Positions 5,461 to 51,286 of a DNA stretch of 64,000 bases are shown piece by piece. The stretch spans positions 192,001 to 256,000 of the forward strand of contig JBGAON010000003.1 in NCBI GenBank assembly GCA_044221725.1. Reading direction: 5' to 3'. The translations under genes were made by a program, and so were the position numbers. The notes under the pieces were generated by a model that saw nothing but the letters and a program-made list of their open reading frames with translations, was not told the origin of the DNA and did no database searches. The stretch comes from Elusimicrobiota bacterium (GTDB lineage Bacteria; Elusimicrobiota; Elusimicrobia; F11). Positions within the stretch are counted from its first letter, which is position 1. The number at the start of each line of letters is the position of its first letter.

Positions 5461-5521
5461 TTTACAAAAGATTTACATTCCATTAATCCGATCTTAATCG
5501 CGCATCCATAGAATTCGCGCT
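5461..5521 (+). promoter_or_regulatory. Pho-box-like 11-bp-periodic array plus -10 element; probable leaderless promoter of the 1963-aa gene
   Basis: TTTACA 5461, TTTACA 5472, TTAATC 5483, TTAATC 5494; TAGAAT at 5509-5514; ATG at 5522 after a 7-nt spacer; no Shine-Dalgarno. Confidence 0.7.
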
Positions 5522-8500
5522 ATGGAAACGCCCCGTTTCGTTCGCGTAGTTGCTGGTTCGCTTTCGATTGTTTATCTCGCCACGAATTGCTTGTTCGCCG
5601 GTCGCGTGGAAGGGAACATCTGGCAGGAAAGGCGACCGTCGTCGGCCCCGAATGTTTTCATCCAGCGTCCCCGTATTCCTGCGGTACACACGGATCTTGG
5701 CTTGCGACGTGCGAGCATGATGGCATTGGCCCGCTTCGGCACCATTCGCAACGTTCAAAAATCCACTCATCCTTCTCCAAAAAATCCCGTGGTGCTCCAT
5801 GTTCAAGACGTTCACATGAACAGCGAAGCACAAAGAAATATTTCCGGAGCTCTTCAACAGCTGATTGACAATGAAAAGGTACGGCTGCTGGCATTGGAAG
5901 GGGCTTTTCATTCAATCGATTTAACGCCGTTTCGTAAATTTCCCGATCGAACGAGTGTTTTCAACGTTGCGGATTACATGTTGCAAGAAGGAAAAATTTC
6001 CGGTGCCATTCATGCCGCGGTCTTCGCTGAAAAAACAGTCTCGACGATTGGTATCGACGATTTTGGCCATTACAATGCAAATGTGGAAGCCGTACAAAAA
6101 TCGTTCGCGGCATCGAAAGAATTAAAACCGGAGATCCTGCGCTACGTGAACGATCTCGAAAAGAAAAAACAACAGACATTTGATTCTTCGCTGCTTCGGT
6201 TCGATAACACCGTGCAACAATATCGTAACCAGTCGCTTTCGTTGGGAGATTACGCTTCGGCGCTTTCTCGGATCGTGGATGCATCGTCGAGCGTGAAAAC
6301 ATTTCTCAAAGCACGTCGTCTCGAGTCAATCATTGATTTCTCTGCGGTCGCGCGCGCGCGTGCCGAGGCGCGTGAGAAAAATATTTCCCCGATCCATTTC
6401 CCATCGTTGATGCTTTACGATGATTACTTGCGAGCGGCAAAGTCAATTGATTCGGATGCGTTGGCGAACGAGTTGGAACACATGGAAAGCGCGGCGTTTA
6501 AAAAGCTTTCGCGAACACCGGCGGAGAGAGAGTTGATTGCGCAATCGCGCCGACTTTATCTGCTTGAGAAGCTTGTGAATTTTTCTCTGACCAAAAATGA
6601 GTGGGACGAATACGAGAACGAGCATCGTTCCGCGTGCGCTATACCTCACGAAAGGATTCAGCCGTTTGAGGCGTTTTATATGGAAGCGGAATATCGTGAC
6701 GCCGCGATGGCGATGAACTTTTTAAATCAAATCAATGAGATAAATGATGCAGACCAAAGCACCTTTGTGTTGGTCACCGGCGGCTTCCATTCTTCCGGCA
6801 TCGACAAACGCCTCGGCGACGCAGGCTGTACCGTGGTGACATTTATTCCAAAGATCACGAAGATCGACACCGTAAACGGTTCCGCGTATCTCAGTGTGTT
6901 TGCGCAAGAAAAATTTTCGCTCGATAAGCTGTTCGAAGGAGAAAAAATTTTCCTTTCGCCTTCGCCGATGTCGAAAAGCGCATTCGGATTGTTCGCCGTG
7001 CTTGTGGCGAGCGTTGCGCTGCTCACCAACGCAGTCTCCAGCGGGATTGCCGCTTCGTGGCTTCAATCAACACTGGCAATGAACGATCTTTCAATTGCAA
7101 AAGCAGGGGCGAACGCGGTGAACATTGTCTTTGGACTTTATGGCGCGCACCTTGGCATCACGTTCTTGAGCGGAGCCGCAGGGGCGATTCGGCCAGAGCT
7201 TTCTATTGCCCGCCAGAAACCGGATTTCGGTCGCTGGTTCCCTTCTTCAATTCGGGAATCACTCGAGCACTTCATGCCGTGGTTCGTGCCGCAGCACATT
7301 GCGATTCGGCGGTGGCCGCTGTGGATTGGTTACGCAATGATTGTCACGTGTGGCGTTGCGTTTCCGGTTCTTTTTTCTGAGTTTGTCTCTGTCGTTCCCT
7401 CCGAAGTGTGGATGTGGACGGGCGGTGTTGTTGCGCACGAATTTTATAACCGGCTGGCAAAAGTTATGGGTTGGCCCATGTTGACCCGTGTGGTTCTTGC
7501 CCAAGATTTTTTAACGGCCGAACAGGAACAGAGCTTGGCTCGCGAAATGGATTCAATATTCGATTCGATGTTGCCGGTGCTGCTGGATAATGAAAAAGCC
7601 CAAGATTTGTTGCTTCGTCTTCTCAAGTCCGATTTGCACAGAAGAATAAATCTGAATCTTGTCATCCAGGCGGATGTGCAGGCGCACAAAAAGGGAAAAT
7701 TTTGGATTCGGCCTGGTTTGACTGCCAAAAACAACGTTCGAATTGCAGACCTCATTCAAGTCCTAACTCGCACTCCCAGTTCCGAGCTTTATGCGCAGAT
7801 CAAAGATTGGCATGAAAAAAACAACGATCTTTCTTTGAATTTGAGGAATTTGACGTTGAGATTTTTGCACGGATTTCGAGAGCTTTCTTATTCTGAGAAA
7901 CAACAACGACAGATTTCGAATTGGATAAGAACCTATGAAGATACAAGGAACATGCTGGTACGACCTTATGTGGGCATCGTCACCGGTCTTGCAAAAAAAT
8001 TTACAAGACAAGGACTGTCAATCGATGAATTGGAATCTGAGGGCTACAGTGGATTGCTTGCGGCGGCCGAACATTATCGCGTTGGGTTTGGACGTTTCAG
8101 CACTTTTGCGACTCCATCAGTGAGAAGAAGCATGCGCGTCGCTGTGTTGCGGAAGGCAAAAGAGAACGCGCCCGAGCGCACGCTGACGGAGTCGATCGCT
8201 GGCGAAGAAATTGATTACGATTCATCGAAATACGAGGAATTATTGAAGCAGGTGTATCAATTGCCGCGGCGAGATCAATTTGTGTTGTCTCAATATTACG
8301 GATTGAATGGCCTGGACCCGGAAAAGCTTGAACAAGTGGGGCGTCGCCTGGGTTTGTCGGTGGAACGAATTCGCCAAATAAGAAACCGCGCGCTGGATAG
8401 GCTTCGAGAGCGCCTGACGTCGCCGACAGGCGAACTTCGGGAGGAAGAAGAGGGTGCGCCTATCTCGAAAAAGCTGAACAGACAGAACGTTATTGATATG

Positions 8501-11413
8501 TTGACCAACGTTTCTCCATCCGTGTTAATGTCTCATGAGGCCGATGTTTTAAGAATGATTTTCGGTATCAATGGTCGTGTGCCGCTTACAATTCAAGAAA
8601 TCTCGGAAGCCACAAAATGGTCCGAATGGCAAATTGAAAGAATCCGCGATGCGGCGCTCGATAAATTGATGAAGGCCCGTGTTCATGAGCACGCATTCGG
8701 AAGGGGGATTCTTCCTTTTCTCGCGCGTGAGTCAAGATTTCTGCGCTTGAAGGGGCATACGCGTTCCGCCTCTTTAATAGAAAACGTTGTTTTTCCTTCC
8801 CTTGAAGAGCTTGTCTTTAGTTTTGGAGCGGTTTACGTGTTCGGCGCGTACGGACTCATTATCGCACGCGTGATTCATGTGGCGTTGCATTTGCTAGGGC
8901 CGCCATTATCGGATCGTGGCGCTCAAAATGTTTTTCGAAAGCTTTTTATTCCTGTTCTTATTTCTGTTGCGCCGTTTTCCTTCCTTGGTGTTCCGAGTCT
9001 TTCTTCTTCGGTGTTTTCGGTAAGTGCGGCTTTTGATGTTGCTGCGCAGTTTTTCGAATGGCACGTTGTCTTTAATTCGCTCGTCGATTTGACGGGCGCG
9101 ACCGTCGCCAAAGCCAATTTGCCAACGAACGACGACATCGTGGGGCCGTATCGCATCCTTCGCGAAATCCGGCCGCAAAGCGCCCGAGCCGTGGCGGTGT
9201 ACGAAGCCGTCCACGTTGAGACAAACGCCAAAGTCATTCTTAAAACGTATCTTGATTTTCCAACGAATTCTCAGGAGTTTTTAAATGCGCATTCCCGTGA
9301 GGTTCGCAACCTCTGGCTGCTCACGCAAAAAGGGATCAATTTCGTTCCCAAATTAATTGATCAAGGCGTCGATTATCACGGCGCGGTTCCGCGATATTGG
9401 TTTGCGATGGAATTGGTCGAAGGGAAAACGCTCGACAAATGGCTCGCCGCCAATGCGAGCTACCACGATCGCTTGCAGGTGTTTCGAAACTTGTTGGTGG
9501 TCGTTGACCGTTTTCACCGAGAGGGATATGTTCACCTGGATCTTACGGCCACCAACATCATGGTGCTGCCAGACAATCAAGTGATGCTTATCGACGTCGA
9601 ATTGATGCAGTCGCTTGAGGTATCCCTTCAACAATTTGTGCTCGGTGCGCCCGCTTATGCATCGCCGGAAACACGGGCGGGTTTTCGGGGAGTTTATACG
9701 CGATCGGCGGATGTTTTTTCTCTCGGTGTAATACTGTTTTTAATGAGCACGGGCATGTCAAAATTGGAACGCCATCCTGCGAACGACGGGGTTTTCTCTT
9801 CGTTGGTAACTCGATATCCAGATGCGGATATATATGAATGGGTTCGCGCCGAGATCGCCAAGCAATCCCCTTGGGCAGTGTACGGCGATGTGATCTCAAA
9901 GGCACTCCGAGCCAACCCGCATTCGCGGTTCACATCCGCTCGGAATTTTCTGAAGGCCATGGACGACGCAGCGGTGCACCACGCTTTGGATGTTTCGAAA
10001 GCGATGCAAGCCATTGACCGCGCTTTTTACCTTGAAGACACAAAAGTTGTCGACGTCACAACCGCTCCTAATGATCTGATGATTTACACCGTTGAGCCGG
10101 AATGGAAAACGGGTCTTGCTTTGTTAACCCAGGAACTATCGTCGCCGCATCCTCGATTCCAACTGGTCATGCGGAATTCGAGATTAATAGGAATTGTTCC
10201 CACCGAAACGCGGCGGGATTCGAGTTTTCGGTATTTGTCTTTGGCCGATTATCAGTACGATCCTCCGGATTATTCCATTGGGCTTTCGAATAAGTGGAAA
10301 GAAATTTTGAAACAAAGCAGCGAGGACGAAGCACGCCTCGAGGAATATTTGCGATCACGCGGGCGTACCGATCGCGAGATCCAAGGCGGTCGTCTCAATG
10401 GATTCGGTGATCATTGTGTTGAACCTGCCGTGCTTGTTGATCTGGGCACGTCGATCACGCTCACATCCATTCGGTCACCTCTCGAACACCCACAGCCGCT
10501 GTTGGCGAGTCGTCGACAAGCCGAAAACTTTGTGATTCAGGTTTTGCCCACCGTCTCTTCTCCGATCGGCAAACAGAATGGCGGATACGAAAAAGCGGCT
10601 GAGGATCGGAAATACTATTTCAATGTTACGAATGTCGCGGAGACATACGATAAGAAAAACGGGCCTGGTTCGTGGAAGGGAAAGAAAAGAATTCGAGTCG
10701 TTGGCTGCGGAACCGGCTGTGACGCGGTCGCCGTGTTGGTGGGTGCAATAAATTATCACGGACATTCGATTGCTGACTTAAGGGACTATATTCGTATCAA
10801 CGAAAGAGTGCCCGAATGGGCACCGATTATCGATGCCAGTGACATAAACCCGGTGGCGGTTGAAAACACGAAGCTCACATTTGACCAACTTGGGATTTCA
10901 GCGGTCGTCTACGCGCATGTGACGGACAACTTGCTGTCTTCGATTCCAACCACGGAGCTCGCCGACGTAATAATTTGGAACATGCCATCTTATCCAGCCG
11001 ATAAATTAGCGGATCAATTGGCCGATTATGCTGATGGCGGCGCCAACGGCAAGATTGCGCTCGACATTTTAACGGAAAGGCTATCGGCGAACTTGGCCGA
11101 TGGCGGCGTGGGAATTTTTGGGAACTACCAAACGCCGGTTATTTTAGACGGAACGCAACGCGATCTTGTTCGATACAAGTTGGTTAACAGCGCAGGGGCT
11201 CGTGAGCGAGGCATGACCGTTCAAGGGGGAGGATTGTATGGCAGCCGCGAGGTCTACGTAACGCATGTGCCGTTGACCCAATCACCGGTGACGCGAATGG
11301 ATGTTGGTCTCAAGTTTCGTTTGGAACATAATCAACAAAACAATGAGCTGCCGAAAATCCCGGTCCGTCACGAGGACTGGATCGAGCGTCGCGCCATTTT
11401 GGGCGGTGCTTAG
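5522..11413 (+). CDS. 1963-aa multidomain membrane protein: N-terminal conserved domain + sigma-70-like + Ser/Thr kinase-like + SAM methyltransferase-like domains
   Basis: Signal-like N-terminus; QDVH..LEGA..RD..MA..GGFH domain; sigma region 2 (DELESEGYSGLL..FSTFA) and two region-4 HTHs; kinase motifs VILK, HLDLTATN, YASPE, DVFSLG; MTase motifs VGCGTG, SDINPVAV, IIWNMPSY; several hydrophobic blocks. Confidence 0.85.
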   Translation: METPRFVRVVAGSLSIVYLATNCLFAGRVEGNIWQERRPSSAPNVFIQRPRIPAVHTDLGLRRASMMALARFGTIRNVQKSTHPSPKNPVVLHVQDVHMNSEAQRNISGALQQLIDNEKVRLLALEGAFHSIDLTPFRKFPDRTSVFNVADYMLQEGKISGAIHAAVFAEKTVSTIGIDDFGHYNANVEAVQKSFAASKELKPEILRYVNDLEKKKQQTFDSSLLRFDNTVQQYRNQSLSLGDYASALSRIVDASSSVKTFLKARRLESIIDFSAVARARAEAREKNISPIHFPSLMLYDDYLRAAKSIDSDALANELEHMESAAFKKLSRTPAERELIAQSRRLYLLEKLVNFSLTKNEWDEYENEHRSACAIPHERIQPFEAFYMEAEYRDAAMAMNFLNQINEINDADQSTFVLVTGGFHSSGIDKRLGDAGCTVVTFIPKITKIDTVNGSAYLSVFAQEKFSLDKLFEGEKIFLSPSPMSKSAFGLFAVLVASVALLTNAVSSGIAASWLQSTLAMNDLSIAKAGANAVNIVFGLYGAHLGITFLSGAAGAIRPELSIARQKPDFGRWFPSSIRESLEHFMPWFVPQHIAIRRWPLWIGYAMIVTCGVAFPVLFSEFVSVVPSEVWMWTGGVVAHEFYNRLAKVMGWPMLTRVVLAQDFLTAEQEQSLAREMDSIFDSMLPVLLDNEKAQDLLLRLLKSDLHRRINLNLVIQADVQAHKKGKFWIRPGLTAKNNVRIADLIQVLTRTPSSELYAQIKDWHEKNNDLSLNLRNLTLRFLHGFRELSYSEKQQRQISNWIRTYEDTRNMLVRPYVGIVTGLAKKFTRQGLSIDELESEGYSGLLAAAEHYRVGFGRFSTFATPSVRRSMRVAVLRKAKENAPERTLTESIAGEEIDYDSSKYEELLKQVYQLPRRDQFVLSQYYGLNGLDPEKLEQVGRRLGLSVERIRQIRNRALDRLRERLTSPTGELREEEEGAPISKKLNRQNVIDMLTNVSPSVLMSHEADVLRMIFGINGRVPLTIQEISEATKWSEWQIERIRDAALDKLMKARVHEHAFGRGILPFLARESRFLRLKGHTRSASLIENVVFPSLEELVFSFGAVYVFGAYGLIIARVIHVALHLLGPPLSDRGAQNVFRKLFIPVLISVAPFSFLGVPSLSSSVFSVSAAFDVAAQFFEWHVVFNSLVDLTGATVAKANLPTNDDIVGPYRILREIRPQSARAVAVYEAVHVETNAKVILKTYLDFPTNSQEFLNAHSREVRNLWLLTQKGINFVPKLIDQGVDYHGAVPRYWFAMELVEGKTLDKWLAANASYHDRLQVFRNLLVVVDRFHREGYVHLDLTATNIMVLPDNQVMLIDVELMQSLEVSLQQFVLGAPAYASPETRAGFRGVYTRSADVFSLGVILFLMSTGMSKLERHPANDGVFSSLVTRYPDADIYEWVRAEIAKQSPWAVYGDVISKALRANPHSRFTSARNFLKAMDDAAVHHALDVSKAMQAIDRAFYLEDTKVVDVTTAPNDLMIYTVEPEWKTGLALLTQELSSPHPRFQLVMRNSRLIGIVPTETRRDSSFRYLSLADYQYDPPDYSIGLSNKWKEILKQSSEDEARLEEYLRSRGRTDREIQGGRLNGFGDHCVEPAVLVDLGTSITLTSIRSPLEHPQPLLASRRQAENFVIQVLPTVSSPIGKQNGGYEKAAEDRKYYFNVTNVAETYDKKNGPGSWKGKKRIRVVGCGTGCDAVAVLVGAINYHGHSIADLRDYIRINERVPEWAPIIDASDINPVAVENTKLTFDQLGISAVVYAHVTDNLLSSIPTTELADVIIWNMPSYPADKLADQLADYADGGANGKIALDILTERLSANLADGGVGIFGNYQTPVILDGTQRDLVRYKLVNSAGARERGMTVQGGGLYGSREVYVTHVPLTQSPVTRMDVGLKFRLEHNQQNNELPKIPVRHEDWIERRAILGGA

Positions 11414-11417
11414 ATTC

Positions 11418-20299: not shown

Positions 20300-20992
20300 T
20301 TGGCCAAAAAAAGAATTCTCATAGTTGATGACGAAGTCCAGATCTGCCAGCTCGTCAAAGACATTCTCGAAGAGAATGGATACACCGCCACCACCGCGCA
20401 TTCGACGGACGAAGCATTCCAAAAATTAAAAGTCACTCTGCCCGATATGATTTTGCTCGACGTACGGCTTCCCACCATTGGCGGTCTCGAATTTTGTCGT
20501 CAAATCAAACAAGACATTCGCTCGCGTCGCGTTCCGGTCATTATGCTCACGGTTCAAGACACCGAAACCGACAAGGTGATCGGACTCGAAGTGGGCGCCG
20601 ATGATTATCTCACGAAGCCGTTTGGAAACCGCGAACTTTTGGCCCGCATCAAGGCGGTGTTCCGTCGCGTCGAGATGAACAAGTCGGACGAATCTTCCGT
20701 TCTAAAAATTGGTCCCATGGAAATTGATATGGACATGCACGAGGTCAAATACAAAGGCAAAGACCTCATGCTCACCCCGAAAGAATTTGAGCTGCTCGTT
20801 GCGCTTGCGAAAAACAAGAACAAAGCGCTTCGTCGAGAGGCGCTCATGTCCACCGTGTGGGGCTATGACTATCCGGGAACCCTCGGCACCATCGACGTGC
20901 ACATCCGGCACCTGCGAAAGAAATTGGGCGAGGCGGGTCGCTACATAAAAACTCTCATCGGCGTGGGGTATCGCTTGGATGAAAAACTCTAA
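20300..20992 (+). CDS. OmpR/PhoB-family response regulator
   Basis: Receiver IVDDE..LLDV..GADDYLTKPF; winged helix LTPKEFELL..IDVHIRHLRKKLG..GVGY; TTG start after SD GAGGTG. Confidence 0.93.
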   Translation: MAKKRILIVDDEVQICQLVKDILEENGYTATTAHSTDEAFQKLKVTLPDMILLDVRLPTIGGLEFCRQIKQDIRSRRVPVIMLTVQDTETDKVIGLEVGADDYLTKPFGNRELLARIKAVFRRVEMNKSDESSVLKIGPMEIDMDMHEVKYKGKDLMLTPKEFELLVALAKNKNKALRREALMSTVWGYDYPGTLGTIDVHIRHLRKKLGEAGRYIKTLIGVGYRLDEKL

Positions 20993-23635: not shown

Positions 23636-23702
23636 TTCAGCGTATCTTAACCCGACCTTAAGGCATCCTTAATCCCACGCTGTTACGATTCTGTTACATC
23701 GT
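23636..23702 (+). promoter_or_regulatory. Pho-box-like 11-bp-periodic array plus extended -10 upstream of the giant gene
   Basis: TTCA 23636; TTAA 23647, 23658, 23669; TGt-TACGAT with hexamer at 23684; second TGTTAC 11 nt later; ATG 23703; no SD. Confidence 0.72.
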
Positions 23703-44700: not shown

Positions 44701-47700
44701 GGAATGTGCCGGGCGGCACATTGGAAGCAAACTCCCGTTACAGCGTGACCGTCAAAGCGCGCAATCGCACCGGGAACGAAACCAACACCTCCGCTCCTAT
44801 TATTGTGGTGACGCTGGCCGAAATTCCGGACGCCCAAAAAGTGCGACCGGCGCTCGATGCGGACGGAAACCCGTTGTTTGTTGCTGGCGGTTATTATCCG
44901 CTCGGAACGAATTTTACTTTCGTGAACAATGCCGGCTGGGCGAGCCCCGAAGGCAAAGTTCAGTATTACCAAGTGATCGCGGACACGAATCCCACCGTTG
45001 CAGATCTCAACCTATTCAATAATTCCAACATCACGACGCGCTGGGACAGCGTCGACTATTCCACGCGGCCCACGGTTTCTGGCAGTTATTACGTGCACGT
45101 CCGTTCGTATAACAGTGCCAATGTTGGCGGTCCGGTTTATAACTTCGGTTTCTTGTCGCTCGATGGAATCGCTCCGACGCCGAACCCGATGCAGCTGGAT
45201 CACGTGGACGTGTACACGACGAGCGTGACGTGGGTCGCTGCGGCCGCACAAGATGAAGTGGGCGGTTCTGGGCTCTCGGCGTCGCCGTACAATTTCGATT
45301 ATCCGAACGATGTTTGGCGCACGTCGCCGTCCTTCACGAGCAATCTGAACCTTTTAAATTTGCCAATCGATCCGAACACGCAAGTGTCCATCAACTTGGC
45401 CGCGCGTGATAACGCCGGCAATGCGACCACGCCGCTATTCGCTTCGACATTCACATACGCGGTGCGCCCGCAACTCGTGGGAGGCGTCAGTATCTTCACC
45501 TCGTCGGCCACGCTGACATGGGACGGTTTGCGAAATTCGAGCTTCACCGTCTATCAGATGGGCGCTTCGCAATCGGCCGATATGTCGAACGCCACGATTC
45601 AAACAATCGGCACGAACGTGAGCTCTGGCACGATCACCGGCCTGCAAGCGGCGACGGCGTATTACATTGGCGTGCGCGCCGTGAATTTCTATGGACACGC
45701 GACCGAATGGCGCGTGGCGCAAGCGGGCATGACCGACGACACGATTCTTCCACCGGCGATCACATCGCTCAACCTGTTCGACACAAAGGCCGACATGACA
45801 TGGGTTTCGTTAAGCCCAGCGGGTTCGACGTTTGAGGTTTTGTCGAACACAGGCACGATACTTGACACGACCCCGGCCCCTCAGAATATTGGCTCTGTGC
45901 TCACGTACCGGTTCCAGCCGCTCACGGCCAACACAACGTACACGTTCGGCGTGCGCGCGCACACGCCGAACAATTTGATCAGTGTTTACAGTTCGTCCGT
46001 TGGTGTGACGCTCGCGACCGCTCCGGTGAACGGATCGTTGACGATTTTTGTCTCCTCGGCGTCCGCATCGTGGACCGAAGGACCGAATTTGATTCCTGGT
46101 GAAACGCTCTATGAGCTGCGCGCGTCGCTCGCGAGCACGCTGGATCAGCCGGCCGACAAAAAAGTTTTTGTTCGCGGAACGAGTGGAATGGTGACGGGCC
46201 TCTCGCCCGACACTTCCTATTATTTCGCGGTGCGCGCGATCAATCACGCTGGCGTGCCAACCGCGTGGCTGAATTTGGGATTTGCTCCGACACCGGTGTC
46301 GCCGCCGGTCGCACCGTTTAGTTACACGGGCCTCACGCCGTCCGCCGTGAACGTTGGTTGGGGCGACGGTGGAAATCCGGCCACGGTTCATTATGTTATC
46401 CAACGTTCGCGCGACAATTTCCAAACCGTGGACGACTCTTCCGACACGTTCGTGACGCCATGGGCCAACACGGGTCTCATGTTTAATACCACGTATTATT
46501 TCCGCGGAAAATCGATCGGTCGCTTGTCGTCGACGAATTTCGTGAGTTTCGGTTCGGTCGTCACGTTGGCAACCGCGCCGGTGCCGGGCACGCTCACGCC
46601 GTTTGTGAATCGAATTGATGTGACGTGGACATCCAACAACAATCCGGCGGGAACCGTTTATTTTGCCGAAGCATCGGAGACGCCGAGCTTCACGTCGGGG
46701 CTCCGAAGCTCGAGCACCACCGGCTTGCAAACCACCATTGAAGGCTTGGCCCCCGACACGACCTATTATGTTCGCGTGACCGCCGTCAACTTTGCTGGCG
46801 CAGCAACAACACCGTCGGTATTTGGTGCGCCCACAGCAACTCTTGCGTACACGCCGGTACAGCCGTCACTGCTCGCGAAATGGACCGCTGGCGCCCTGAA
46901 AAACAATGTGATTGTCACGATCAGCGCCGGCGATTTGAATCCGATCCAAACGCTCTACGCGATTTACAACGCCAACGCGAACGTTTATTTGTCCGGCGAT
47001 GGAAACGGCGGAACGTCGGCGTCACCGGTGTGGTTCTCGCGCGACGATTGGAGTCGCGATTTGAACGGCACGACAACTGGTGTGTTGCGGGGCACGCATG
47101 GAAACGTGCCGGCGTGGACGGATTACAGCTACCGCGTGCTCGCGAAAAATCAAAATGGAGTTTTGACCGCGCTCTCGAGCACGAGCACCGTTCGAACCGT
47201 GCCACAAAAACCGGCGCTCGCGGCGGCGGTACTTAACAACGACGAAGTGCAGCTCAGCTGGGGCGCTATGGGCTCCATCGGTTTCCAGGCGTACGTGTCG
47301 CTCGACGGCGTAAACTTTGTTCCATACTTCGATTCGGTGCCGGTCGGAACCACGGTTCATTACATGATTCCGCCCGCGAACGGAACGACCACGTACATTC
47401 CGGCGGGTCTTACCGAAACGCGTCATGACGTTGATGGCGGCACGCCCGCGGATGCGTCACCGCTCGCGTACGTCAGTGCGACCTCGACGACGATAAAATT
47501 CCAGTGGACGCCGGTCGCGAATCCCGAGGCCGCCACGATTCGTTACTACAAATTGGCCGGTGTGGGCGTGTTCGATCAACAAGGCGAACCGTCGGATATT
47601 CTCCCGGCGCAAGTGCAACCCATCATTAAGAGCTATGACATCTTTGGAGAAAAAGGCAACGTGCCGGGCTACGTCTATCCGGCGTTGCCGCCGGGCCCCA

Positions 47701-50003
47701 CCGGGGATGTGACGGGCCTCACACCAAACACAAAGCTAAACGTGCGCGTGCGCGCTCGCTCGTCGGACGATATTACGGGTCAGGTTTCGGCGGCGGTGGT
47801 TGCGTACTCGTTGGCGAACATTCCCAATCAGCTCGTGGTCGCCCCGGGCTTTGATGAATCGCACGGCGCTTTCTTAAACATCGATTTCTCGTCGAACGGC
47901 AACTCGACGCCGACCGAGTACGCGGTGCGGATGGTGCAACGCGACTACGAAGTGCTTTCGTCGAGCTGGGTCGACAATGTGGGTGGCGTTCTCGGCACGC
48001 CGACATGGTTGCCACAAACGCATTGGATCCACACGCATCTGCGCACAGCGACAACCTATTATTACGAGGTTTACGCGCGCAACGGGTCCGGCATTCAGGC
48101 TGGACCGTCCACGATGGGTTCCGGCGTAACGGTTTCGTTGCCACCGCCAAGCTTGCTGCGTGGAAAAGGCTTTTCACCGACGGAAATTAACTGGATGTGG
48201 AAAGACAACGCGACCGACGAAGCCGGCTTCCGCGTGATCGCGAATGTTAACGGCACGCCAACCGTGATGGCCGAACGGTTGTTCTCCGATCCGCAGAACG
48301 GAACTCCCGACGGAGTAAATGTTGTCGAAACCGGACTCGCGGGCCCGAACCGTCCGTACACGCGCACCGTGGTCGCGTTCACGGCGCGAGGCAACAGTTT
48401 GCCGTCAAACGAATTTACCGCGTACACAATGGCCACCACGCCGGACGTCGAGTCGACGAACCACCAAGCGAGCGTGCTCAGTCAGGAAATCAAATTCAAA
48501 TTTAAAAACAACCTGCCGTTTGGTGAAGGCACCGCGGCCTACTACCGCGTGAAATTTACGACGGCGACGACCTACACGTTCATCGGCAACGAAGAGCGTT
48601 GGGACGACCCGGCGCAGGTGAAAGAATTTACGCGCGACATCGTGGCCAGTTACACCACGTGGTACCTGCACGTGATGAGCTACAACCAAAACAACGATCC
48701 GTCGATCGCGAAACCGTTTGGTCCGTATCCGCTGTTCCAAGACGTTGTTCCACCGGAAGTGAGCGACCTCACGCAAGATGGTTCCAGTGCGTTTAACGGA
48801 GCGCGCCCCGTGTCGGAAGCGCCGATTGGTCAGCGGCAGTATCCGCTCCAGGACGTGTCGTTTGCCGCCTCCATTCCGTGGGCGCCCGTCGTGAACAGCG
48901 TGCACGTCATTGTGACGAAGCGTTTGGAGCCGACAACGTTAACTCCGGCAAACGTGGTCGTGACCGCAATCCAAGACAATCACAGTCAGCCGGTCGTGAC
49001 GCAGCCTGTGATCACTTACACGGTTACTTACGACGATGCGTCGAAGCAGGTTCATGTGCTTTTCTCGCAATTGCCGGCGGGTTATTTGCTTGATCTCACG
49101 TTCAACGCCGGCGTAAAAGATTTGGCCGGCAATTCGTTCGCGAAAGATTTCCATTACCTGTTCCGCACGTTCTACGACAAAGACAAAGAAAACGTGTTTG
49201 TGTTGAACGATGTGCCAGGCCAGCAGAAAACCACTCTCACGTTTGCGCCGAAGGCGCTCGGTGAATCGGGCTCCATCGGCGGCGAAGGAAGTCCCAAAGA
49301 TTTTGCGTACGGTTACGACGTGGGCGCATTAAACATCGCCACGCAAAAACTCGTTCGCGCGGGCGGCGATCAAGCGTTGCCGTTGTCGCTGCGCTATGTC
49401 GGCGGGTTTGGTCCGTCGCGCGCTCGAATGAGCGGCGAGCTTCAGAGTGGTATGACGATCAGCATTCCGTACCGCGACGATAACAACGATGGAATCATCG
49501 ATTCGGTCGCGAACGCGCCGGTTTCGGAGGGGGGGCCGCAAAGCCAAGATGGTTACGCGACCGCATCCGCGCCGATTCGCGTGGCCACGCTGCAACTGAT
49601 GGTGTTTGACGAAGACCATCAGATCTGGGTGAAGGTGCCGGGCGCCATCGTCGACAAACAAAACAAAGTTGTGCGCGGCACCGTATATCGAATGGGTGTG
49701 TTCGGCGTCGTTGGATCGCCGTCAAACGATGTTTCAAATTCGTACGCGTACCCGGTTCCGTTTGTGGCCTCGAAAGACAGCACGATCAAATTTATCAACC
49801 TACCGGATGATGGAACGATCCGCGTCTACACGGCCGAAACGGGTCAGCTTGCGAAAGAAATTCAATTCGCGCCGGGCCACCCGGACCCGATCGAGTGGGA
49901 CGTGAGGAACGAAAGCGGCGAAGCGCTTGGTTCCGGTGTTTATCTGTATCAGATCAAGTCCGGTGGGAACACGAAGAAGGAGAAAATTGTTATCGTCAGG
50001 TGA
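23703..50003 (+). CDS. 8766-aa giant secreted/surface protein: FG-GAP (VCBS) beta-propellers, FN3/Ig stalk, T9SS-type-A/FlgD-like C-terminal domain
   Basis: Sec signal MKRIYS..VLA; many WGDxNxDGxxD repeats; FN3 motifs (L.PNT.Y...VRA.N); Ig-like GVKDLAGN domain; C-terminal YAYPVPF..IRVYT..W..RN..G..LGSGVYLY..KIVIVR. One open frame of 26301 nt. Confidence 0.92.
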   Translation: MKRIYSIAVLLFFGAPAFVLAQTKTWVGLGSDNNFGTANNWSPSGVPASNDVLLFDGSSNKPCRLEPVNGTALTIAGLTSVSNSTVTITLAADRRLVVNGDFNLSSGTFIADGFRMDIQGNWTTSKDSVFNCKTSTTIFTGTTVSNIEGSTTFYALQSTQADKLLNFAPLSRTTVLNMVNFQNVSLQCFDPLLTRPWYIVFLGTDQTLNNVTVGNSNASLGATMVADAASTDAGGNQNWAFWSAPPDPVGNLRVYKESQIGLTWSSPLGGADIYEIRISPNPINDTNIADASVAKIILSGSKQPETFAVSLTGLSFNGSYYAAVRSRRSAGQWSGLATGGPAEAGIFAKHSDFGLPNDMLNPILKIADFNSDGVSAIAGGHFMDIAIAGTVAGVPTLRVFRWDPNAAQYVKAFEQSESGSSPMLEWVDLNNDGNLDLIYGDSNSTKIFLNQGSGVRTPAFVDDNGVYSGSLPALSEGTLAVGDANNDGRIDLAFIGKTSSQDTPTVRLIISNGTALSYVNTPLDGTTITNGSIAWGDANRDGKEDLLVVGNESLMLLRNLGNNQFDKPWSTNGLSASAAAWIDMDHDGLLDFAVLGKQNGNPKILVYRNTTQQGIPSFDTPFDLEPGLFAGDFQQAVLAWGDINNDGWSDLLVMGSDGTNRHLIAFLNNDQGANPVQWTKIEPLGAQRGLDNGSLAFGNFDGDGQNNNGDLDFVAAGFDGSRPRLYVFENLTFSAVGNVPNARPAAPTALANSTDGANISFAWQSPTNDETSGTGMMFQIQVATVSFATNPTTLTVPGVHGSPLIGNYPSAFLDDTQRGVKLSLEDGTSYYWRVRAIDSAYAQGAYTEQGPVYLPPVPPNNITDLLAVSGAQISLTWTAPSARGDGLARVKGYEIYKSNTDPAVPINVASPNWTLLLNTTNTVLDPGKIQEMTVTGLTPNTNYWFAIRAYNDKTFAVLPGTASATAGHYQLADDKLVLSSATSRGSVAWGDINNDGYLDFVAAGNHGTVDTRVYLYNPNTKKFSLGQTLTEQMDDASVAMADYDQDGFLDLAVKGRLLPNSATSNRVFIYRNKGNNQTPTSQFFAPIDSRSIDPNFDTGTFGEIKWADYNADGTQDLIVLGPISGSFIGLTALRNDDVDHSFSPVLLSSETAGTIGGSMAWADVDNDGDLDVAIATSRNTSVLMNDGNGNFTKKWASEGLAGSAVAWGDFDNDGFWDLAVSGYASAAAQARLKVFPGDGAFNFDMRTMTMSTGTYSGSSLAGMLAWVDLDNDGYPELIASGQTSTKPTDPKRFMIFSNKFASTPANPLQIVEHPFGKDFGVYNGGLAAGDMGNDGDADLLLLGLQSTSSGADIQRLALLENLQADAGVGSINWAPPTNNLSTTFDSVSGIVTFHWNVPAAPAGVDSALARGLSYNLTVTNLSTGKIVVSSAIATPLLGNYLTHGQNSVAWSLHLPDATSYQWRVQTVDPSLHRSAFSAAQTVTVPAIPPAPVTDLSATAGAQVRLTWTAPGDDGQSGTVTKYRIYFSPNSFANVTDAGVSLVAIAAAGANPPFVRGGLTESRDITGLVPGTLYYFRVLGEDRNGVVSNLPNSIASAKATHFSSELVTGFTGIAEGQLAIGQLNNDARFDVAEIGMGPSALAFHALIGQAAGGFSQTTIGAGLKDSALTLVDIDRNGSIDALVSGLDTNQNPTTKLYLNTNGTFTGSNIALPAMSRGGYAVGDIDNDGDLDIVAVGAGVNGVRLYENVNMNNAFQINTAKKLFNVSFSSGAAVALADVDGDGTLDIVVAGFDGTRARFMVLKQTNGVFSIYNEPFGPLDGYTNASLCWADVNLDGKWDLVVSGQRQGANSEIAIFEGTGNPATPFIYHPFNTPGTSQPLNSGNSGAGALAVGDINNDGYPDITVAGLDPQANKGRLFVYLNSGAALPAGAISWSVEEPLGPGFGLTKASLALADVDNDGDLDLVAMGLDNSSKRVVKYFKNLQVESGLPANAAPTQPALSYTVNGALATFRWDIGNASEVDKKALTYDLAITYRTGGNTYTMVSPQQATPMQGNTPMIGLGNTASISRTLALKDNTTYFVKVRSIDAGLRASAWSNEVSVDLSNVPPGNFIDFAVAPAAKAELTWTAPGGDGAVGQLQSYDIRRSNQPIDPADLTAFLALPQIPNIPTPKVAGQPESVMVTGLVTGTQYYFAIRGYDGTGGYTSIATANVAAGALKLVQTLTGLGDTAITVADYNRDGMKDLLLAGDDGVQAWKGNGTTFTLDSQASFPGLQSPAIAALDWDTDGKIDFVAAGNQTNKIAYIYRNNTPNSPAFATVVGSSITGFTEGSFAWGDANRDGDMDLAVAGNGLDGIYLYSNVSRANPTAPFVGVKISSVALNGGAALAWGDIDNDGIPDLIATGADSSFVPRLMVLLGTGNGNFAAPIDVFVTDGYREAGVVVTDFNGDGLPDIAITGRRRTGPFTQLLANQSTPGAVQFSVSNLPASGLSSGTNETSGIAAGDLNNDGKIDLAVSGVDQSGSARLIIYLNRLPSAWEIVEPLGRNQGLSRSRLAFVDQDGDGDLELVATGVDAQNNKKLLVFKNESVENVGPNGTNIRPNAPTLNAPSLSGNQISLTWTKTSDAGVANTQTPSDAMNYDLEVLEAPNGNPTNTSVYLSTAVSSPYAGNISPKRGATLSYVLIARDNHTYSARVRAVDAGLLPGVWSNTQSQLIGIIDPAQITDLTAVSGAQVNLRWTAVGADGNVGTASSYILRYWTSGSFDTGTTVPLPAPKSAGATESTVVTGLQPNQTYFFGIKAVDENGHASALSNTPSAMAGLFELAQELPGLRYGAAAMGRVFDNNNQFVALGSSGAGVGQALVYGMTNGQFVLKQDLNKQLLSGTAAWGDYNGDGKLDLAIGGTEKFFSSTQTRLYFFRNSGTQLVEDTALALSFQPTSLAWRDYDNDGDLDLLVSGQTSVSTKFTRVYENRNGTFVQVWEKQIAGAAAWIDEDKDGWPDILISGNGFQANSSKTSVYKNVLTSQPTVYFSESLSTETISATLQGAVAVGDANRDGMSDIAMTGTDQAVPLKIFLNTSNGFSVNAPLDLGISLSSATMAWADLNHDGWSDLVVSGFDANVNRARLLVYLNNNGAFGVPFEPLGENAFAGGLALGNVDGDADIDVVASGEAAGGAARLTYLKNVLLDRGGSTNAAPGTITTSAPNVNGTNLILNWNIPTDDHTLSSAITYGVRVATMPLATANSFVKSFVAASPFVGNADINSATVRVRDGQTYYWSVRAIDGSFVEGPEAVGQSITVNGIPPGNISDLTATTGLQAKLSWTAPGADGNAGTATSYDLRYWQDGGSYATGTPYSIPAPKPAGTAESVGINGLKPNGVYYFALRAIDDGGLASSVSNISSATASSFGIAQSFFGNGVGLESAGLAAGDVNNDGNLDFVMVGASGTVSLTRVYESDGNGGFTIIDKDNLSNNFVGLQNAAVAVGDMDNSFGWLDFAIAGRGTNGESLKIYRQVSANQFAKTDLDQYGVVDGSLAFGDVDGDGKPDLAIMGQNASGTVYRLLVLRNSGTGLVHDPNWDLSASSGVAQGQIALADMDNDGKLDLVVLGRRNTAPFTSNLRIFPNTGNTAQPFAGGINVEDISFSYGSMATGDVDNDGDLDVIVNISAQPRLYRNKFSQTGVLGFDINKLGLPSLRNGQIAFADWNNDGFLDIAMSGVSGSTRKLMVVPQSVVGGQAFGFDLAQAQEILGPNQGLENSSLIFGDFDNDGDADLLVTGKDNSFPVSRQFYLLKNLDIDSSINPGRSNPKPTAPNLASVAYNYDGSILRIRWDASSDQNAAGASSADSLSYSIEVKSGDGSATFLSGAYGTPLFGDFIRPHKVGNKLEYQMRVLPFGQTNYNDRSVRIRAIDTSLQAGPWSSVSTVVLNKVSAPLNPQGAANSFDKITWSWDPPTVTEGLLGYRVTKLDGTPVSPNLPSDVTSWQESQLLSNTNYSRRIEAFNAIMSSASTSVTTKTLDRVFAGAPDAPTNLSVALPTGATIYDQLALAWQDASPSSPDRQAEGYNVERATAATGPYTQIATVIPAALTYVDGGLTANASYYYRVFGFNGTGGGVSSASSVSGRRTRQQKPVTPLFQNVYSSSMTIRWNTANSVGTRFEIWVSTDAGFSEYAPTIATQLTNAPTMQATINNLTALTTFYARVRTLSDSSDLPAVDADFVLVPGFAVTLAPVITLTKPALTSVGPLFDPQLYTQLQATWTAVTNALAYSLERSLTPTIGFSVVATANAPALTAVDPGPLSPDKIYYYRVRAINGANVSPYSDVVSTRTKSAPVDAWLTYDVNISSLIARWSRHGNPSSVSYQLIRSSRNFTEPLFTLLQTSTDNATINSLTPNTTYAFRIRSVNTNGIPSTLDYSDVQTKTVVTLAKIPTPLSYPAVGANFVTAAWDAGNPANPTGTVYTVQLALDAGFTSSVIQSTTAFTQFTFSNLANETVYFGRVKATNHAGMDTAWALLNSTMTLSSAYEINPPTNLLLTVISAHAMNLDWQDNSSNETAFAIDRSLNGSLWTLAATLPANTQTYLDQTGLLADTSYYYRVRALNDAISSQASNALFDVTLAEPPAFFTGGLTVTTTSLNAVWGPAGNPTSTRYEVRWASAPFANFTFAPLVTNTVYTIPSLQVNTTYQVDVRAWNGDVPSVPTAFVNLGTRATLAVSPSATSITPIYISSVVANCSPNENPAGTRYEFVASLNSNFSTTDAFLSTMPASNAVAIDGLAGGTTYYFRMRAINHGGVPTSPWVLFGTPDLVRTNDAPILTSTSPANPHFVFVASTTLNLAWDPTNNADDYRLRRRMNGGSPVEFLTGSVATNFTDGLSSVLTPNASYSYQVTALNGPYSTLPSVEITTVTLAAIPGALQSLSVTPTSLIVTWDPANNSQGTKYTVQVDPITNGTPSTTFRDVFLPSATISGLTPNTTVEIRVQAVNILGARTSFVFVVSTVTRANLPINVTNNVSINVATVTWNANSNPTDTRYEMNVSAGDTMNPNTQIYFNVSTSTRAVLNGLSANSTYTYTITSINRAGDRNASLPITFTTQPSPVTSGSLTVFVTSATVDTLTAGSNPPDTIYRFTARDLSTNIISQTQSASLPLTIQGLQSNTTHAFSLNAIGRTGSVSAVYAFANRATLANAPGAGGITNVGTNFVQSSWTANGNPGGTIYELEAVPVGTQTEIFAPRTTQLIAQVSPLNTNTSYDMYVRAVNRTGMLTPWTLLGTTTTLTANAVVGVPTNVAVRPPLDLVTTPELDLSWSAPVAVPGVPDPVGYDIFRDNNGVLTQIGSVAVAGPLTFVDTGSPSAPMLPNSIYSYRVAARSAGQNPVLNFSNLVSSATYAVKPTVSATVSSSTITTVKFFWDDNVNPNTPTYRAELSADNFQTVLAQQAVSQKTAIFVGLQPNTSYYARVRTIGLMNIETANTAIGIQVTLATRAIAGVPPFGTVTSNSIQANWSSTNPSETNFLVETSWSNGVGPSVTTSNPNTATVGSLFPNTNYTVTVTALNRVGVPSFPPTLLGTVKTGASVFISSPTDLIVTRPAGGETDRLLLAWQDNSSGAAEEDSFSIFRWSANESVTEVGQVPGVAGAGNQLTYTSTNLLPNKNYFFFVVARKGAELSLPSNNANATTWAAVPQWAPVALSRTDKSITATWTPDTNPLGTRYRLEVSSDNFATPFVIASSQTVGFTATINGLLSNAVYSVRVSAIDPVQGSFAIPVLSTNTLAAVPLPVLVGDAFEDFVSSITAHWFSNENVTDTAYTLKAYSDAALANQAGSVVVNQTQGTINGLAANTTYWFTVKAANRDGGFSPIFNLGPSVTLPSAFLLSATPPADNVLWRGRNVPVGSSFAFATDAFGNPSHAAYLRYLWIKDQPSFTWPSDDNQDLVPNIWRAGDGDRVIVASETGVYYLQVKAYSWANEGNPETEKSYGPFNVDVDTPTPNPEVIANVVRATNALTWVGSVASDPTPPTGAGLASQAYGWTFGNGAEKFQTESSSVTAGLSANTAYTMALRARDNAVPANITEPAAITAATSQNLPTGIVANEIQMTSATFTVQGTFPNVTVGRSGIQVKMVSNGNEIFSSTVQSTVVTVEGLRGNVTYDVFARAFNQDGFPTDWTTPISTTTRGTRPDITADKPPYPPAVYPGNTLVRFADKGAFQRGEVAYYKFLVTPYNYEPDSLTFSTGATRVDAGSWAYLFVRSQVSYVHIRSYDVSNRSLPGDYLMLGPWVIDADAPRILGVSSATVTGTTSMTFTIGESEDVGLAGFPANPFSFDNGATWVSQNVLVREDLTANTSYFADILVRDAVGNVSSPAIHLAAYTFQNIPTGVTVTSRSGNHVVVAAQGAFPNVETALSGLQFDTMPPGPTQPWLQVNSATFSFLSFNSSYSVTAKARNADGTETALSPETVVWTLAKPPRLVAVQGVEREWAKNPLFKFRALELPGLSTYDHFRIAWSTNPTYAFNGTLREQDWAPRALTDEFVTTATVSGRWYLHFVSVNRTGDIAFADPADRLSWFGYDVEAPSPNPAQFGTPVPSSNLITWFASNVTTDTLSGLNSSPYIWNFIGGANGGDTFTADPSSTTFALTPNKLYTQMLRVRDALGNTADAVQQSTYTLAATPSTFNSFRVYKTSVTAEWLTNLNPAGTIFTSQISVDGAFASVFETSRTVANAATFGAAPAPGALNANTTYYVRVRAENFANIPTAWIVLGTVTTRPDAPSVVVSTNSAAPYNPALIGGAFAVGTTFTGVSEIPLGTSIEYYRWVWDRNPTYGSFSGLEDRVDASRPLISTSPAAGGDYYLHVGSFHGGTIPFDEVIQSVNIGPFHVFGQTGSNPVAQAVEISSTSVRWRQNHANGSNFVDANCATSGGYYGFQLESGTTFWTCPDPVNPSIIDYVTTALMPNTTYTMNAYLRDSLGNITGPASATAATLQTTPTGVTASNIWTSSMSLTAQGNFFNTGAGTGEFQFTIARGLSVIQSPWLPTPSWNVPGGTLEANSRYSVTVKARNRTGNETNTSAPIIVVTLAEIPDAQKVRPALDADGNPLFVAGGYYPLGTNFTFVNNAGWASPEGKVQYYQVIADTNPTVADLNLFNNSNITTRWDSVDYSTRPTVSGSYYVHVRSYNSANVGGPVYNFGFLSLDGIAPTPNPMQLDHVDVYTTSVTWVAAAAQDEVGGSGLSASPYNFDYPNDVWRTSPSFTSNLNLLNLPIDPNTQVSINLAARDNAGNATTPLFASTFTYAVRPQLVGGVSIFTSSATLTWDGLRNSSFTVYQMGASQSADMSNATIQTIGTNVSSGTITGLQAATAYYIGVRAVNFYGHATEWRVAQAGMTDDTILPPAITSLNLFDTKADMTWVSLSPAGSTFEVLSNTGTILDTTPAPQNIGSVLTYRFQPLTANTTYTFGVRAHTPNNLISVYSSSVGVTLATAPVNGSLTIFVSSASASWTEGPNLIPGETLYELRASLASTLDQPADKKVFVRGTSGMVTGLSPDTSYYFAVRAINHAGVPTAWLNLGFAPTPVSPPVAPFSYTGLTPSAVNVGWGDGGNPATVHYVIQRSRDNFQTVDDSSDTFVTPWANTGLMFNTTYYFRGKSIGRLSSTNFVSFGSVVTLATAPVPGTLTPFVNRIDVTWTSNNNPAGTVYFAEASETPSFTSGLRSSSTTGLQTTIEGLAPDTTYYVRVTAVNFAGAATTPSVFGAPTATLAYTPVQPSLLAKWTAGALKNNVIVTISAGDLNPIQTLYAIYNANANVYLSGDGNGGTSASPVWFSRDDWSRDLNGTTTGVLRGTHGNVPAWTDYSYRVLAKNQNGVLTALSSTSTVRTVPQKPALAAAVLNNDEVQLSWGAMGSIGFQAYVSLDGVNFVPYFDSVPVGTTVHYMIPPANGTTTYIPAGLTETRHDVDGGTPADASPLAYVSATSTTIKFQWTPVANPEAATIRYYKLAGVGVFDQQGEPSDILPAQVQPIIKSYDIFGEKGNVPGYVYPALPPGPTGDVTGLTPNTKLNVRVRARSSDDITGQVSAAVVAYSLANIPNQLVVAPGFDESHGAFLNIDFSSNGNSTPTEYAVRMVQRDYEVLSSSWVDNVGGVLGTPTWLPQTHWIHTHLRTATTYYYEVYARNGSGIQAGPSTMGSGVTVSLPPPSLLRGKGFSPTEINWMWKDNATDEAGFRVIANVNGTPTVMAERLFSDPQNGTPDGVNVVETGLAGPNRPYTRTVVAFTARGNSLPSNEFTAYTMATTPDVESTNHQASVLSQEIKFKFKNNLPFGEGTAAYYRVKFTTATTYTFIGNEERWDDPAQVKEFTRDIVASYTTWYLHVMSYNQNNDPSIAKPFGPYPLFQDVVPPEVSDLTQDGSSAFNGARPVSEAPIGQRQYPLQDVSFAASIPWAPVVNSVHVIVTKRLEPTTLTPANVVVTAIQDNHSQPVVTQPVITYTVTYDDASKQVHVLFSQLPAGYLLDLTFNAGVKDLAGNSFAKDFHYLFRTFYDKDKENVFVLNDVPGQQKTTLTFAPKALGESGSIGGEGSPKDFAYGYDVGALNIATQKLVRAGGDQALPLSLRYVGGFGPSRARMSGELQSGMTISIPYRDDNNDGIIDSVANAPVSEGGPQSQDGYATASAPIRVATLQLMVFDEDHQIWVKVPGAIVDKQNKVVRGTVYRMGVFGVVGSPSNDVSNSYAYPVPFVASKDSTIKFINLPDDGTIRVYTAETGQLAKEIQFAPGHPDPIEWDVRNESGEALGSGVYLYQIKSGGNTKKEKIVIVR
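24432..35445 (+). repeat. Six ~600-aa FN3 / FG-GAP propeller / FN3 modules within the giant ORF
   Basis: Module starts (PP..I.DL....Q..L.WTAP-like) near 24432, 26271, 28161, 30012, 31836, 33579; diverged at the DNA level. Confidence 0.8.
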
Positions 50004-50007
50004 CGCT

Positions 50008-50719: not shown

Positions 50720-50943
50720 TTAGCCAGATCCTCAAATGTTTTGTGATGGCGCTTCATGATTTTTGCCGCGGCCTTTTTGAATTTCTCTTCCCGCTGGGCA
50801 TCCTTAATGGGTGAAACGATGAGATTTTTCCCGTCGGTGCTCAGTTCCAGGGGCGTGTCCATTGATATCTTCAATATATCGAGAATTGGTTTATCAATGA
50901 TAAGCGCTGCGCTGTTGCCATGTGCCGTTAAATGCTTGACCAT
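50716..50943 (-). CDS. AbrB/MazE-family antitoxin (75 aa)
   Basis: MVKHLTAHGNSAALIIDKPIL..LIVSP; SD GGAGG upstream of ATG 50943; upstream of doc. Confidence 0.88.
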   Translation of the reverse strand: MVKHLTAHGNSAALIIDKPILDILKISMDTPLELSTDGKNLIVSPIKDAQREEKFKKAAAKIMKRHHKTFEDLAK

Positions 50944-50974
50944 AAAACCTCCCAAATGAAGTCCTTCGGATGGA

Positions 50975-51012
50975 AGTATATAGGATACACAAAGGATATA
51001 CAATGGATACAC
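50975..51012 (-). promoter_or_regulatory. TA operon sigma-70 promoter overlapped by three direct-repeat operators
   Basis: -35 TTGTAT (51003-50998), 17 nt, -10 TATACT (50980-50975); GGATAYAC repeats at 50983, 50994, 51005 (11-bp period). Confidence 0.75.
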
Positions 51013-51222
51013 CCAGGGAAGGGCGGCTGCTTCGTAATATCGGCGGGAACCTGTAGATGGTCTCAAAAGGACTGGCGCTGCCGGCGAATCTCCAGACTTT
51101 CTTGCGGTTAGACGAGCTGCCGAGATTCAATTAAGGTATTTTGAAGCGGCCGAGATATCGTTCGAATGATCCTCAGTGCTGCATAATAAGCTGTCTTTTC
51201 AGGCTATTTTTGGTGGCCTTTT

Positions 51223-51286
51223 TTAAGCCCTTCTTAACCTCGTCTTAAAGCGCCCTTAATCCAGCCTTGTTACAGTTTGGTTACAT
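51223..51286 (+). promoter_or_regulatory. Pho-box-like 11-bp-periodic array plus extended -10 upstream of the PorV-like/TolC/RND operon
   Basis: TTAA at 51223, 51234, 51245, 51256; TGt-TACAGT with hexamer at 51271; second GTTAC 11 nt later; ATG 51287; no SD. Confidence 0.75.

Follow-up and report, generated by a model that had tools for sequence, protein, structure and literature searches.

What kind of promoter is shared by three distant genes that each follow a row of short boxes repeating every 11 bp, and what reads it? The question is raised by a stretch of 64,000 nucleotides (nt) from an uncultured Elusimicrobiota bacterium (positions 192,001 to 256,000 of contig JBGAON010000003.1, assembly GCA_044221725.1), here called the window. 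An earlier note had described the three arrays there and proposed that they form one regulon, possibly linked to phosphate starvation, with the OmpR-family response regulator encoded at 20300, which we call R1, as a local candidate for its control. Judged from the DNA sequence, the arrays appear to be a genuine promoter code of this lineage, written in two types of box, A and B. Two regulators, R1 and a second OmpR-type regulator, R2, probably act jointly to switch on giant genes that share an exported N-terminal head domain and oppose each other at genes for surface proteins.

The three promoters and their counterparts across the genome

The coordinates of all boxes at the three sites proved correct, as did their exact 11-bp period, except that the first unit of site 2 is weak, which leaves that site with three good boxes (Table 1). 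At all three sites a TAnnnT hexamer starts 15 nt after the start of the last box, as had been described, and the ATG follows the hexamer by 7, 13 and 10 nt at sites 1, 2 and 3, with no Shine-Dalgarno (SD) sequence visible before it. The pattern is well above background: TTAA-N7-TTAA occurs six times in the window, every time at one of the three sites, against 0.57 expected, and none of 100 shuffles reached six. These features support the suggestion that repeats of the OmpR/PhoB type replace the -35 element in front of a fixed -10, and are consistent with leaderless or short-leader starts. The promoter geometry that the three sites were said to share stands as far as the boxes and the fixed hexamer distance go; the layout itself is of two kinds. 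Site 1 has two A boxes followed by two B boxes (A-A-B-B), whereas sites 2 and 3 have B arrays and an out-of-register A pair over the -10, which is the GTTAC pair already noticed there.

The motif of the three sites recurs across the source genome (2.82 Mb in five contigs, C1 to C5; 94% complete; labelled G000). CTTAA pairs occur 33 times at 11 bp against 0 to 7 times at other spacings from 5 to 36, and TTACA pairs 29 times against 0 to 8. With a matrix derived only from the three sites of the window, 26 loci score above 18, compared with 0 to 3 in three shuffles, and a two-box A/B model refined on this same genome finds 50 arrays at a score of at least 18, compared with 0 to 4 in five block shuffles. 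For 45 of the 50 arrays an open reading frame (ORF) of at least 100 amino acids (aa) begins within 130 nt. The view that the sites belong to a shared regulon rich in giant genes is borne out in a simple ORF set, where an array precedes 20 of the 36 ORFs of at least 1500 aa and 25 of the 2364 shorter ones. The TAnnnT hexamer lies at +15 or +16 from the last B box in 21 of the 38 arrays that end in B, and other offsets have 0 to 3. The first in-frame ATG or GTG of A-A-B-B promoters is found 26 to 30 nt after the last B box in 18 cases out of 25, and an SD-like word in 2 out of 25; the closeness of the start codon and the rarity of SD words together fit a leaderless mRNA. In four metatranscriptome runs of one study, the stretch is present only as short contigs of low depth.

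Two further loci are recorded here as observations in their own right. Just past the end of the window, tandem arrays (B, then A-A-A-B-B; C5:256549-256690) precede a gene for 8369 aa without the head domain, of which the first 4999 aa gave no Pfam match. Among the best four-B arrays is one (C3:188839-188920) that is followed by an ATG without SD and by no ORF of at least 60 aa directly behind it, so that a small protein or an RNA is possible.

Two types of box, their targets and their candidate readers

Box A reads G/T-TTAC and box B reads TTAA, with the register shifted by one base. In the 25 A-A-B-B promoters the A-type C is present in boxes 1 and 2 without exception (25/25 each), boxes 3 and 4 always start with TT (25/25) and mostly carry the B-type AA, and the two types hardly mix. 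Where an A pair stands before a B pair, it does so at a single gap (14 cases, with none at 24 other gaps).

The arrays fall into three classes. Class 1, to which site 1 belongs, is A-A-B-B followed by the -10. In class 2, three or four B boxes are followed at 13 nt by an A pair; the class includes sites 2 and 3 as well as the promoter of an 18,006-aa gene on C2; there are 22 such sites in 10 of 41 genomes, all of family f1. A second downstream GTTAC is seen in all 22 because the search pattern required it. The final T of TAnnnT is also kept within the first A box in 22 of 22, and upstream A boxes have it in only 5 of 29 and 3 of 29, which suggests that the -10 beneath the A pair is under constraint. 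A site over the -10 is the usual place for a repressor. Because the A pair lies in this place and on what appears to be a working -10, we read the downstream A pair as a putative repressor site. Class 3 comprises 12 A-only promoters of the variant C/T-TTACA, mostly within one 35-kb stretch of C5, and the strict triple of this variant is confined to one genus. At C5:570596-604749, A-only promoters precede an operon with a type II secretion/pilus ATPase, an RHS protein with SpvB and TcdB_toxin_midN matches, a protease, a transglutaminase-like gene and small exported proteins; this cluster may be a contact-weapon island with a third reader. At C3:576756-589692 a variant of class 2, with the A pair just past the -10 of B boxes, precedes two PKD-repeat proteins, one of which carries a C-terminal sorting domain of the type IX kind.

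The targets differ between the classes. A profile search, seeded with 14 array targets, identified 26 head-domain ORFs in the genome. An array scoring at least 18 precedes 25 of these, in 22 cases A-A-B-B, and the 26th also has a B array in front; the four head genes that are not of the A-A-B-B type have B-rich arrays. Behind the head domain lie glycogen synthase, phosphorylase, hexokinase, adenylate kinase, dehydroquinate synthase and beta-CASP domains, and also PP2C/FHA, GGDEF, WD40, kinase and sigma domains. The 22 class 2 targets include no head gene; seven are relatives of the PorV-type protein of site 3, six belong to the family of the 18,006-aa protein, five to that of site 2 and four are others. 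The 18,006-aa gene (C2:219210-273230), in whose product no Pfam match was found over the approximately 11,500 aa scanned, ends head-on against R2 and its kinase (273275-275539).

The strict A-A-B-B pattern is found in 11 of 11 genomes of f1, 3 of 3 of f10 and 0 of 26 others, with none in a reversed control. Phylum-wide it occurs in 16 of 401 genomes, namely the source, f1 (7/7), f10 (6/9), f20 (1/1) and f23 (1/1). In relatives, a -10 at +15 or +16 is seen for 23 of the 29 sites, and a head gene follows at 23 of the 28 A-A-B-B loci; the rows left out are L357, which is the same gene as L346, L105 and L120, which come from the source genome itself, and, in the comparison of f4 and f10 head-gene boxes, the head loci of genomes G044 and G048. 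In the three f10 genomes that lack the strict pattern, 24 of 30 head genes are preceded by A pairs, with weaker B boxes, so that absence of the strict pattern is not absence of the arrays. The spacers between boxes vary freely, and the boxes and their spacing hold across families. B-only triples also occur in f11 and in scattered genomes that have neither R1 nor head genes, and these probably belong to other regulators.

The genome encodes nine OmpR-type regulators. R1, whose closest relatives are in the Elusimicrobiota, has PhoB as its top NCBIfam match at a score under the cut-off. The DNA-binding domain of R2 has 8hml, 8hig and 8hih as its best Protein Data Bank (PDB) matches. Close orthologues of R1 are present in 10 of 11 genomes of f1 and 3 of 3 of f10, those of R2 in 11 of 11 (one of them partial) and 3 of 3, and both regulators are present in three additional f10 genomes. 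In a tree of 75 listed loci of f1, f10 and f11 together with a partial set from other families, out of 289 matches, the R1 clade and the R2 clade (FastTree support 99 each) contain rows from exactly f1, f10 and f4 among those sampled. The idea, based on identity, that R1 and R2 are confined to f1 and f10 was dropped, as the tree shows orthologues in f4 at 44-45%. The R2 of genome G361, which had looked broken, was likewise dropped as a case of natural loss, since another frame encodes an intact helix and A boxes persist.

Family f4 bears on the assignment of boxes to regulators. Head genes are multi-copy in f1, f10 and f4, and f4, which has many of them, lacks the strict A-A-B-B pattern. Its R1 and R2 are the distant orthologues just mentioned, and the neighbours of its R1 resemble the source locus in order and size. 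Of the 27 head genes of f4, 17 follow an A pair, and the -10 keeps its place at +15 or +16 in 15 of these; box 3 has become TTTAGG, TTTAAG, TTGAAG or TTCAGG, with TTAA in none of the 17. The recognition helix of R1 is rewritten in this family and that of R2 is nearly kept. The joint change of the R1 helix and box 3, together with the retention of the R2 helix and the A boxes, links R1 with B and R2 with A. Two further points favor this pairing: helices of the R1 type accompany phased TTAA boxes before pstS at 7 of 9 loci outside the phylum, and the structures closest to the R2 DNA-binding domain are those of GlnR, which has GTnAC-n6-GTnAC as its box. The regulator at 20300 is thus supported by these comparisons as a likely binder, specifically of the B boxes. 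The notion of one regulator with one logic finds no support, the two box types and two promoter classes having different sets of targets.

Several observations concern the regulator loci themselves. Two Elusimicrobiota loci, L025 and L026, have A and A-A-B-B arrays some 2.7 kb in front of R1, and in L025 these head an operon of kinase, regulator and R1, which suggests feedback on the R1 operon in L025, but not in the source genome. An orphan HAMP histidine kinase in the source genome (C2:23151-24763) is headed by a four-B array and could be a feedback link in the R1 circuit. KdpE-like regulators were considered as a general reader, since they have TTAA-like repeats beside them, and rejected because they are patchy in f1. 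They are directly followed by their own TTAA/GTAA-like 11-bp repeats in front of small genes at C3:96001-96043 and C1:240843-240886.

Table 1. Proposed regulators, promoter elements and target genes. Positions are those of the window, except where a contig is named.
Feature	Position	Strand	Remarks
Sensor kinase (HAMP-HisKA-HATPase)	18853..20268	+	Directly upstream of R1; presumed partner by adjacency; not PhoR
R1, OmpR-family response regulator	20300..20992	+	Recognition-helix region from about 20888; proposed activator at B boxes
R2, OmpR-type regulator	C2:273275-273979	-	Follows a Cache-HAMP kinase; proposed binder of A boxes
Site 1, A-box pair (TTTACA x2, 11-bp period)	5461..5477	+	Sequence; proposed R2 site in putative co-activator position
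Site 1, B-box pair (TTAATC x2)	5483..5499	+	In phase with the A pair, at the place of the -35; proposed R1 site
Site 1, -10 hexamer TAGAAT	5509..5514	+	15 nt past start of last B box; start codon 7 nt on; predicted leaderless
Site 2, weak upstream unit TTCAGC	23636..23641	+	Sequence; in phase, under the box threshold
Site 2, three B boxes, 11-bp period	23647..23674	+	Sequence
Site 2, A-box pair (GTTAC x2, at 23682 and 23693)	23682..23698	+	13 nt after last B box; covers -10 TACGAT (23684-23689) and predicted start; proposed repressor site
Site 3, four B boxes, 11-bp period	51223..51261	+	Sequence
Site 3, A-box pair (GTTAC at 51269 and 51280)	51269..51285	+	Over -10 TACAGT (51271-51276); proposed repressor site
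1963-aa protein: N-terminal head domain, sigma-70 regions 2 and 4, protein kinase domain	5522..11413	+	A-A-B-B target; export-like N-terminal signal
8766-aa surface-type protein: fibronectin III and FG-GAP repeats, no head domain	23703..50003	+	Target of B boxes plus downstream A pair
659-aa PorV/PorQ-family barrel with TPR repeats, no head domain	51287..53266	+	First in a same-strand run (TPR, OEP and RND proteins)

A proposed two-regulator mechanism and its alternatives

The reading we favor, to which we give a probability of roughly 0.6, is that R1 on B boxes activates from beside the polymerase, and that R2 on A boxes co-activates when it is bound upstream in phase and represses when it is bound over the -10. 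The arrays would be sigma-70 promoters in which the -35 is replaced by head-to-tail sites for OmpR-family proteins with two readers. R1 would bind the B boxes adjoining the -10 and contact RNA polymerase. At A-A-B-B promoters an R2 dimer would sit in phase just upstream of the R1 dimer, both signals being required or additive, and the output would be head-domain giants with metabolic and signalling enzyme domains, made mostly from leaderless mRNA. At B-B-B(-B) promoters, where the A pair covers the -10 and the start, R2 would block what R1 turns on, the output being surface-type giants and PorV-type barrels. The activity of R2 would then flip the cell between two export programmes, under the control of two sensor kinases. 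What we infer here comprises binding, the assignment of boxes to regulators, activation as opposed to repression, the start sites and the two-state reading.

A number of observations weigh against this reading. No array heads the R1 or the R2 operon in the source genome. Genomes G048, with seven strict sites, and G044, with one, belong to another class, are 92-93% complete and have four OmpR-type genes each, among which no member of the R1 clade was found, their regulators being R2 sisters only; the targets in G048 also include genes without the head domain. R2 was not found in G322 (incomplete, in 270 contigs), which keeps A pairs, and R1 was not found in G001 (87% complete), which keeps B boxes. 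Three head genes have B-rich arrays with no clear A pair upstream, and A is therefore dispensable in some cases. The change in f4 is a single event in one lineage, and the class 2 sites amount to about six orthologous groups and hence to few independent cases. The trees are quick or FastTree runs in which outgroup regulators were partly sampled. The refined matrix and the head-domain profile, for their part, derive from this same genome and from array targets, respectively.

Some of these points would be accommodated if a single OmpR-type regulator took all the boxes, A and B being position variants of one half-site in the manner of the a and b sites of GlnR, with the other regulator a bystander. 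The two box types do share one continuous 11-bp register, and four GlnR protomers are described in passages of PMC10235972 as binding unlike a and b sites; the arrays of G048, which resemble A-A-B-B and have R2-like candidates only, would also be explained. We regard this as unlikely, since the order for GlnR is a-b-a-b and not a-a-b-b, A pairs are also found over the -10 outside the register, B-only arrays exist, intermediate hexamers are few, and f4 has changed only its downstream boxes, and these together with the R1 helix. Alternatively, there could be two readers with another pairing or another sign, such that a further regulator, R4, or a factor outside the OmpR family reads one of the boxes, or that the downstream A pair activates or is simply a conserved extended -10. 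R4 is present in 11 of 11 genomes of f1, the C/T-TTACA variant of A-only promoters in one genus makes a third reader plausible, and the apparent absences of R2 from G322 and of R1 from G001 point the same way. No R4-clade row from f10 or f4 was found among those sampled, though A boxes occur in both, and the second of the downstream GTTAC units is situated past the -10 and recurs at 22 sites in 10 genomes (where the pattern required it), which makes such an arrangement rather unlikely. That the shared upstream sequence is a non-working relic of the duplication of giant genes would agree with most A-A-B-B targets being paralogues with a common head domain. The free variation of the spacers between constant boxes, and the presence of the same boxes before unrelated genes, render this hardly credible.

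A phosphate-starvation regulon, run by R1 as a second PhoB/PhoP, was the possibility raised by the earlier note, and it is made very improbable by the phosphate genes of this genome. These form an operon on C3 (phoB-phoR-porin-pstSCAB-phoU-DUF47-pit) that has its own regulator, a PhoR-like kinase and its own repeats: upstream of phoB lie three TGTCA-type units in 11-bp steps and a fourth that is out of phase by one base, and a further TGTCA-type pair lies before the porin. No A/B array was found before phoB, the porin, pstS or DUF47/pit, and the pho promoters score -3.1 to -7.4 compared with at least 18 for the arrays. The PhoB of this operon (C3:145713) forms a separate clade with R1 and R2 outside it; the TIGR02154 cut-off is missed by R1 and R2, and by this PhoB too. 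The families PhoA (PF00245) and PhoD (PF09423) were not found in the 94% complete genome, and the array targets searched in Pfam include no phosphate transporter or alkaline phosphatase. What favors a phosphate link, besides the PhoB match of R1, is that regulators of other phyla with the R1-type helix often adjoin pst genes, in a search of relatives that was seeded partly on that helix. Of the nine such loci outside the phylum that have pstS in view, seven show phased TTAA boxes, two to four of them, upstream of pstS, and two phased TTAC units are seen at none. The Pho-like look of the arrays is likely due to a recognition helix that R1 shares with these pst-linked TTAA-box regulators. R1 seems, from this comparison, to share the DNA-reading surface of that group, whether or not by common descent, and to serve other genes. 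TGTCA-type pairs are also found away from the pho operon, at C5:518891, C5:344342, C5:351041 and C4:605798, one of them before a 3457-aa gene and two near the regulator R5; they are either further PhoB targets or sites for R3/R5.

If the two-regulator mechanism is correct, it may bear on how these bacteria live. The Elusimicrobiota are described in part of PMC11573180 as being among the bacteria richest in huge proteins, which are poorly characterised. Only tentatively, and with the odds against it, we propose a lifestyle switch in what is probably a predatory or host-attaching lineage. R1 alone would drive surface giants and PorV-type barrels, for search or attachment, and with R2 added, an in-phase R2-R2-R1-R1 tetramer would turn on about two dozen head-domain giants (with glycogen, kinase, nuclease and sigma domains) and shut the first set off, for feeding or growth. 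If such a switch exists, the promoter code would sort hundreds of unannotated giant genes of these families by life stage from their sequence alone. The two-regulator mechanism itself names both regulators and their short boxes and makes opposite predictions for the two sets of genes, which can be addressed with purified proteins and without a culture. Two different OmpR-family dimers that abut in phase at promoters throughout a regulon would be an unusual design, and to our knowledge there is no close case of it, though hardly any search was aimed at this point.

Relation to known systems

Each of the systems that the arrays call to mind shares some of their features. The PhoB and PhoP boxes of E. 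coli and Bacillus are 11-bp direct repeats in place of the -35, and the arrays resemble the Pho regulon in this respect and in the likeness of the B boxes and the R1 helix to the pst-linked TTAA-box group. Here, however, the targets are giant exported proteins, there are two box types, and the pho operon uses another regulator and TGTCA repeats. The boxes of PmrA/BasR and QseB are TTAA-core direct repeats at 11 bp before the -10, as the B boxes are. In contrast to PmrA, R1 and R2 score 160 and 161 bits against NF007928, for which the cut-off is 330, no lipid A modification genes were seen among the targets, and a second type of box is present. Literature searches turned up no published consensus for a TTAA box.

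The A pair matches the GlnR box of actinobacteria, GTnAC-n6-GTnAC as given in part of PMC10704036, and the DNA-binding domain of R2 is closest to GlnR structures. In the structures 8HML and 8HIH, four GlnR protomers are arranged head-to-tail around the -35 on their unlike sites, according to passages of PMC10235972. GlnR, however, is an orphan regulator of nitrogen genes, whereas R2 has an adjacent kinase, and there is no nitrogen-assimilation gene among the annotated array targets. At toxT of Vibrio cholerae two winged-helix regulators, ToxR and TcpP, act together, one beside the polymerase and the other as an upstream co-activator that also represses another promoter, ompT, as set out in sections of PMC6733452. 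As proposed here, R2 would likewise be an upstream co-activator that represses elsewhere. ToxR and TcpP differ in being membrane proteins that act about three turns apart at one promoter, whereas two soluble response regulators would here abut in phase at more than twenty.

Giant multi-domain exported proteins of Omnitrophota and Elusimicrobiota, for which predation or host association has been proposed in portions of bioRxiv 10.1101/2023.11.21.568195 and PMC11573180, are similar to the array targets in being very large and exported. The word 'promoter' is absent from the main text of both, and the relevant passages describe no regulation; by title or opening of the abstract, no paper on giant-gene regulation in these phyla was found in a search that left the subscription literature mostly uncovered. 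The system does not belong to the Pho, PmrA or GlnR regulons and is probably distinct from ToxR/TcpP. Its promoters are of a known kind, built on 11-bp direct repeats, and what would be new, as far as comparison of sequences can tell, is an OmpR-type regulon written in two boxes.

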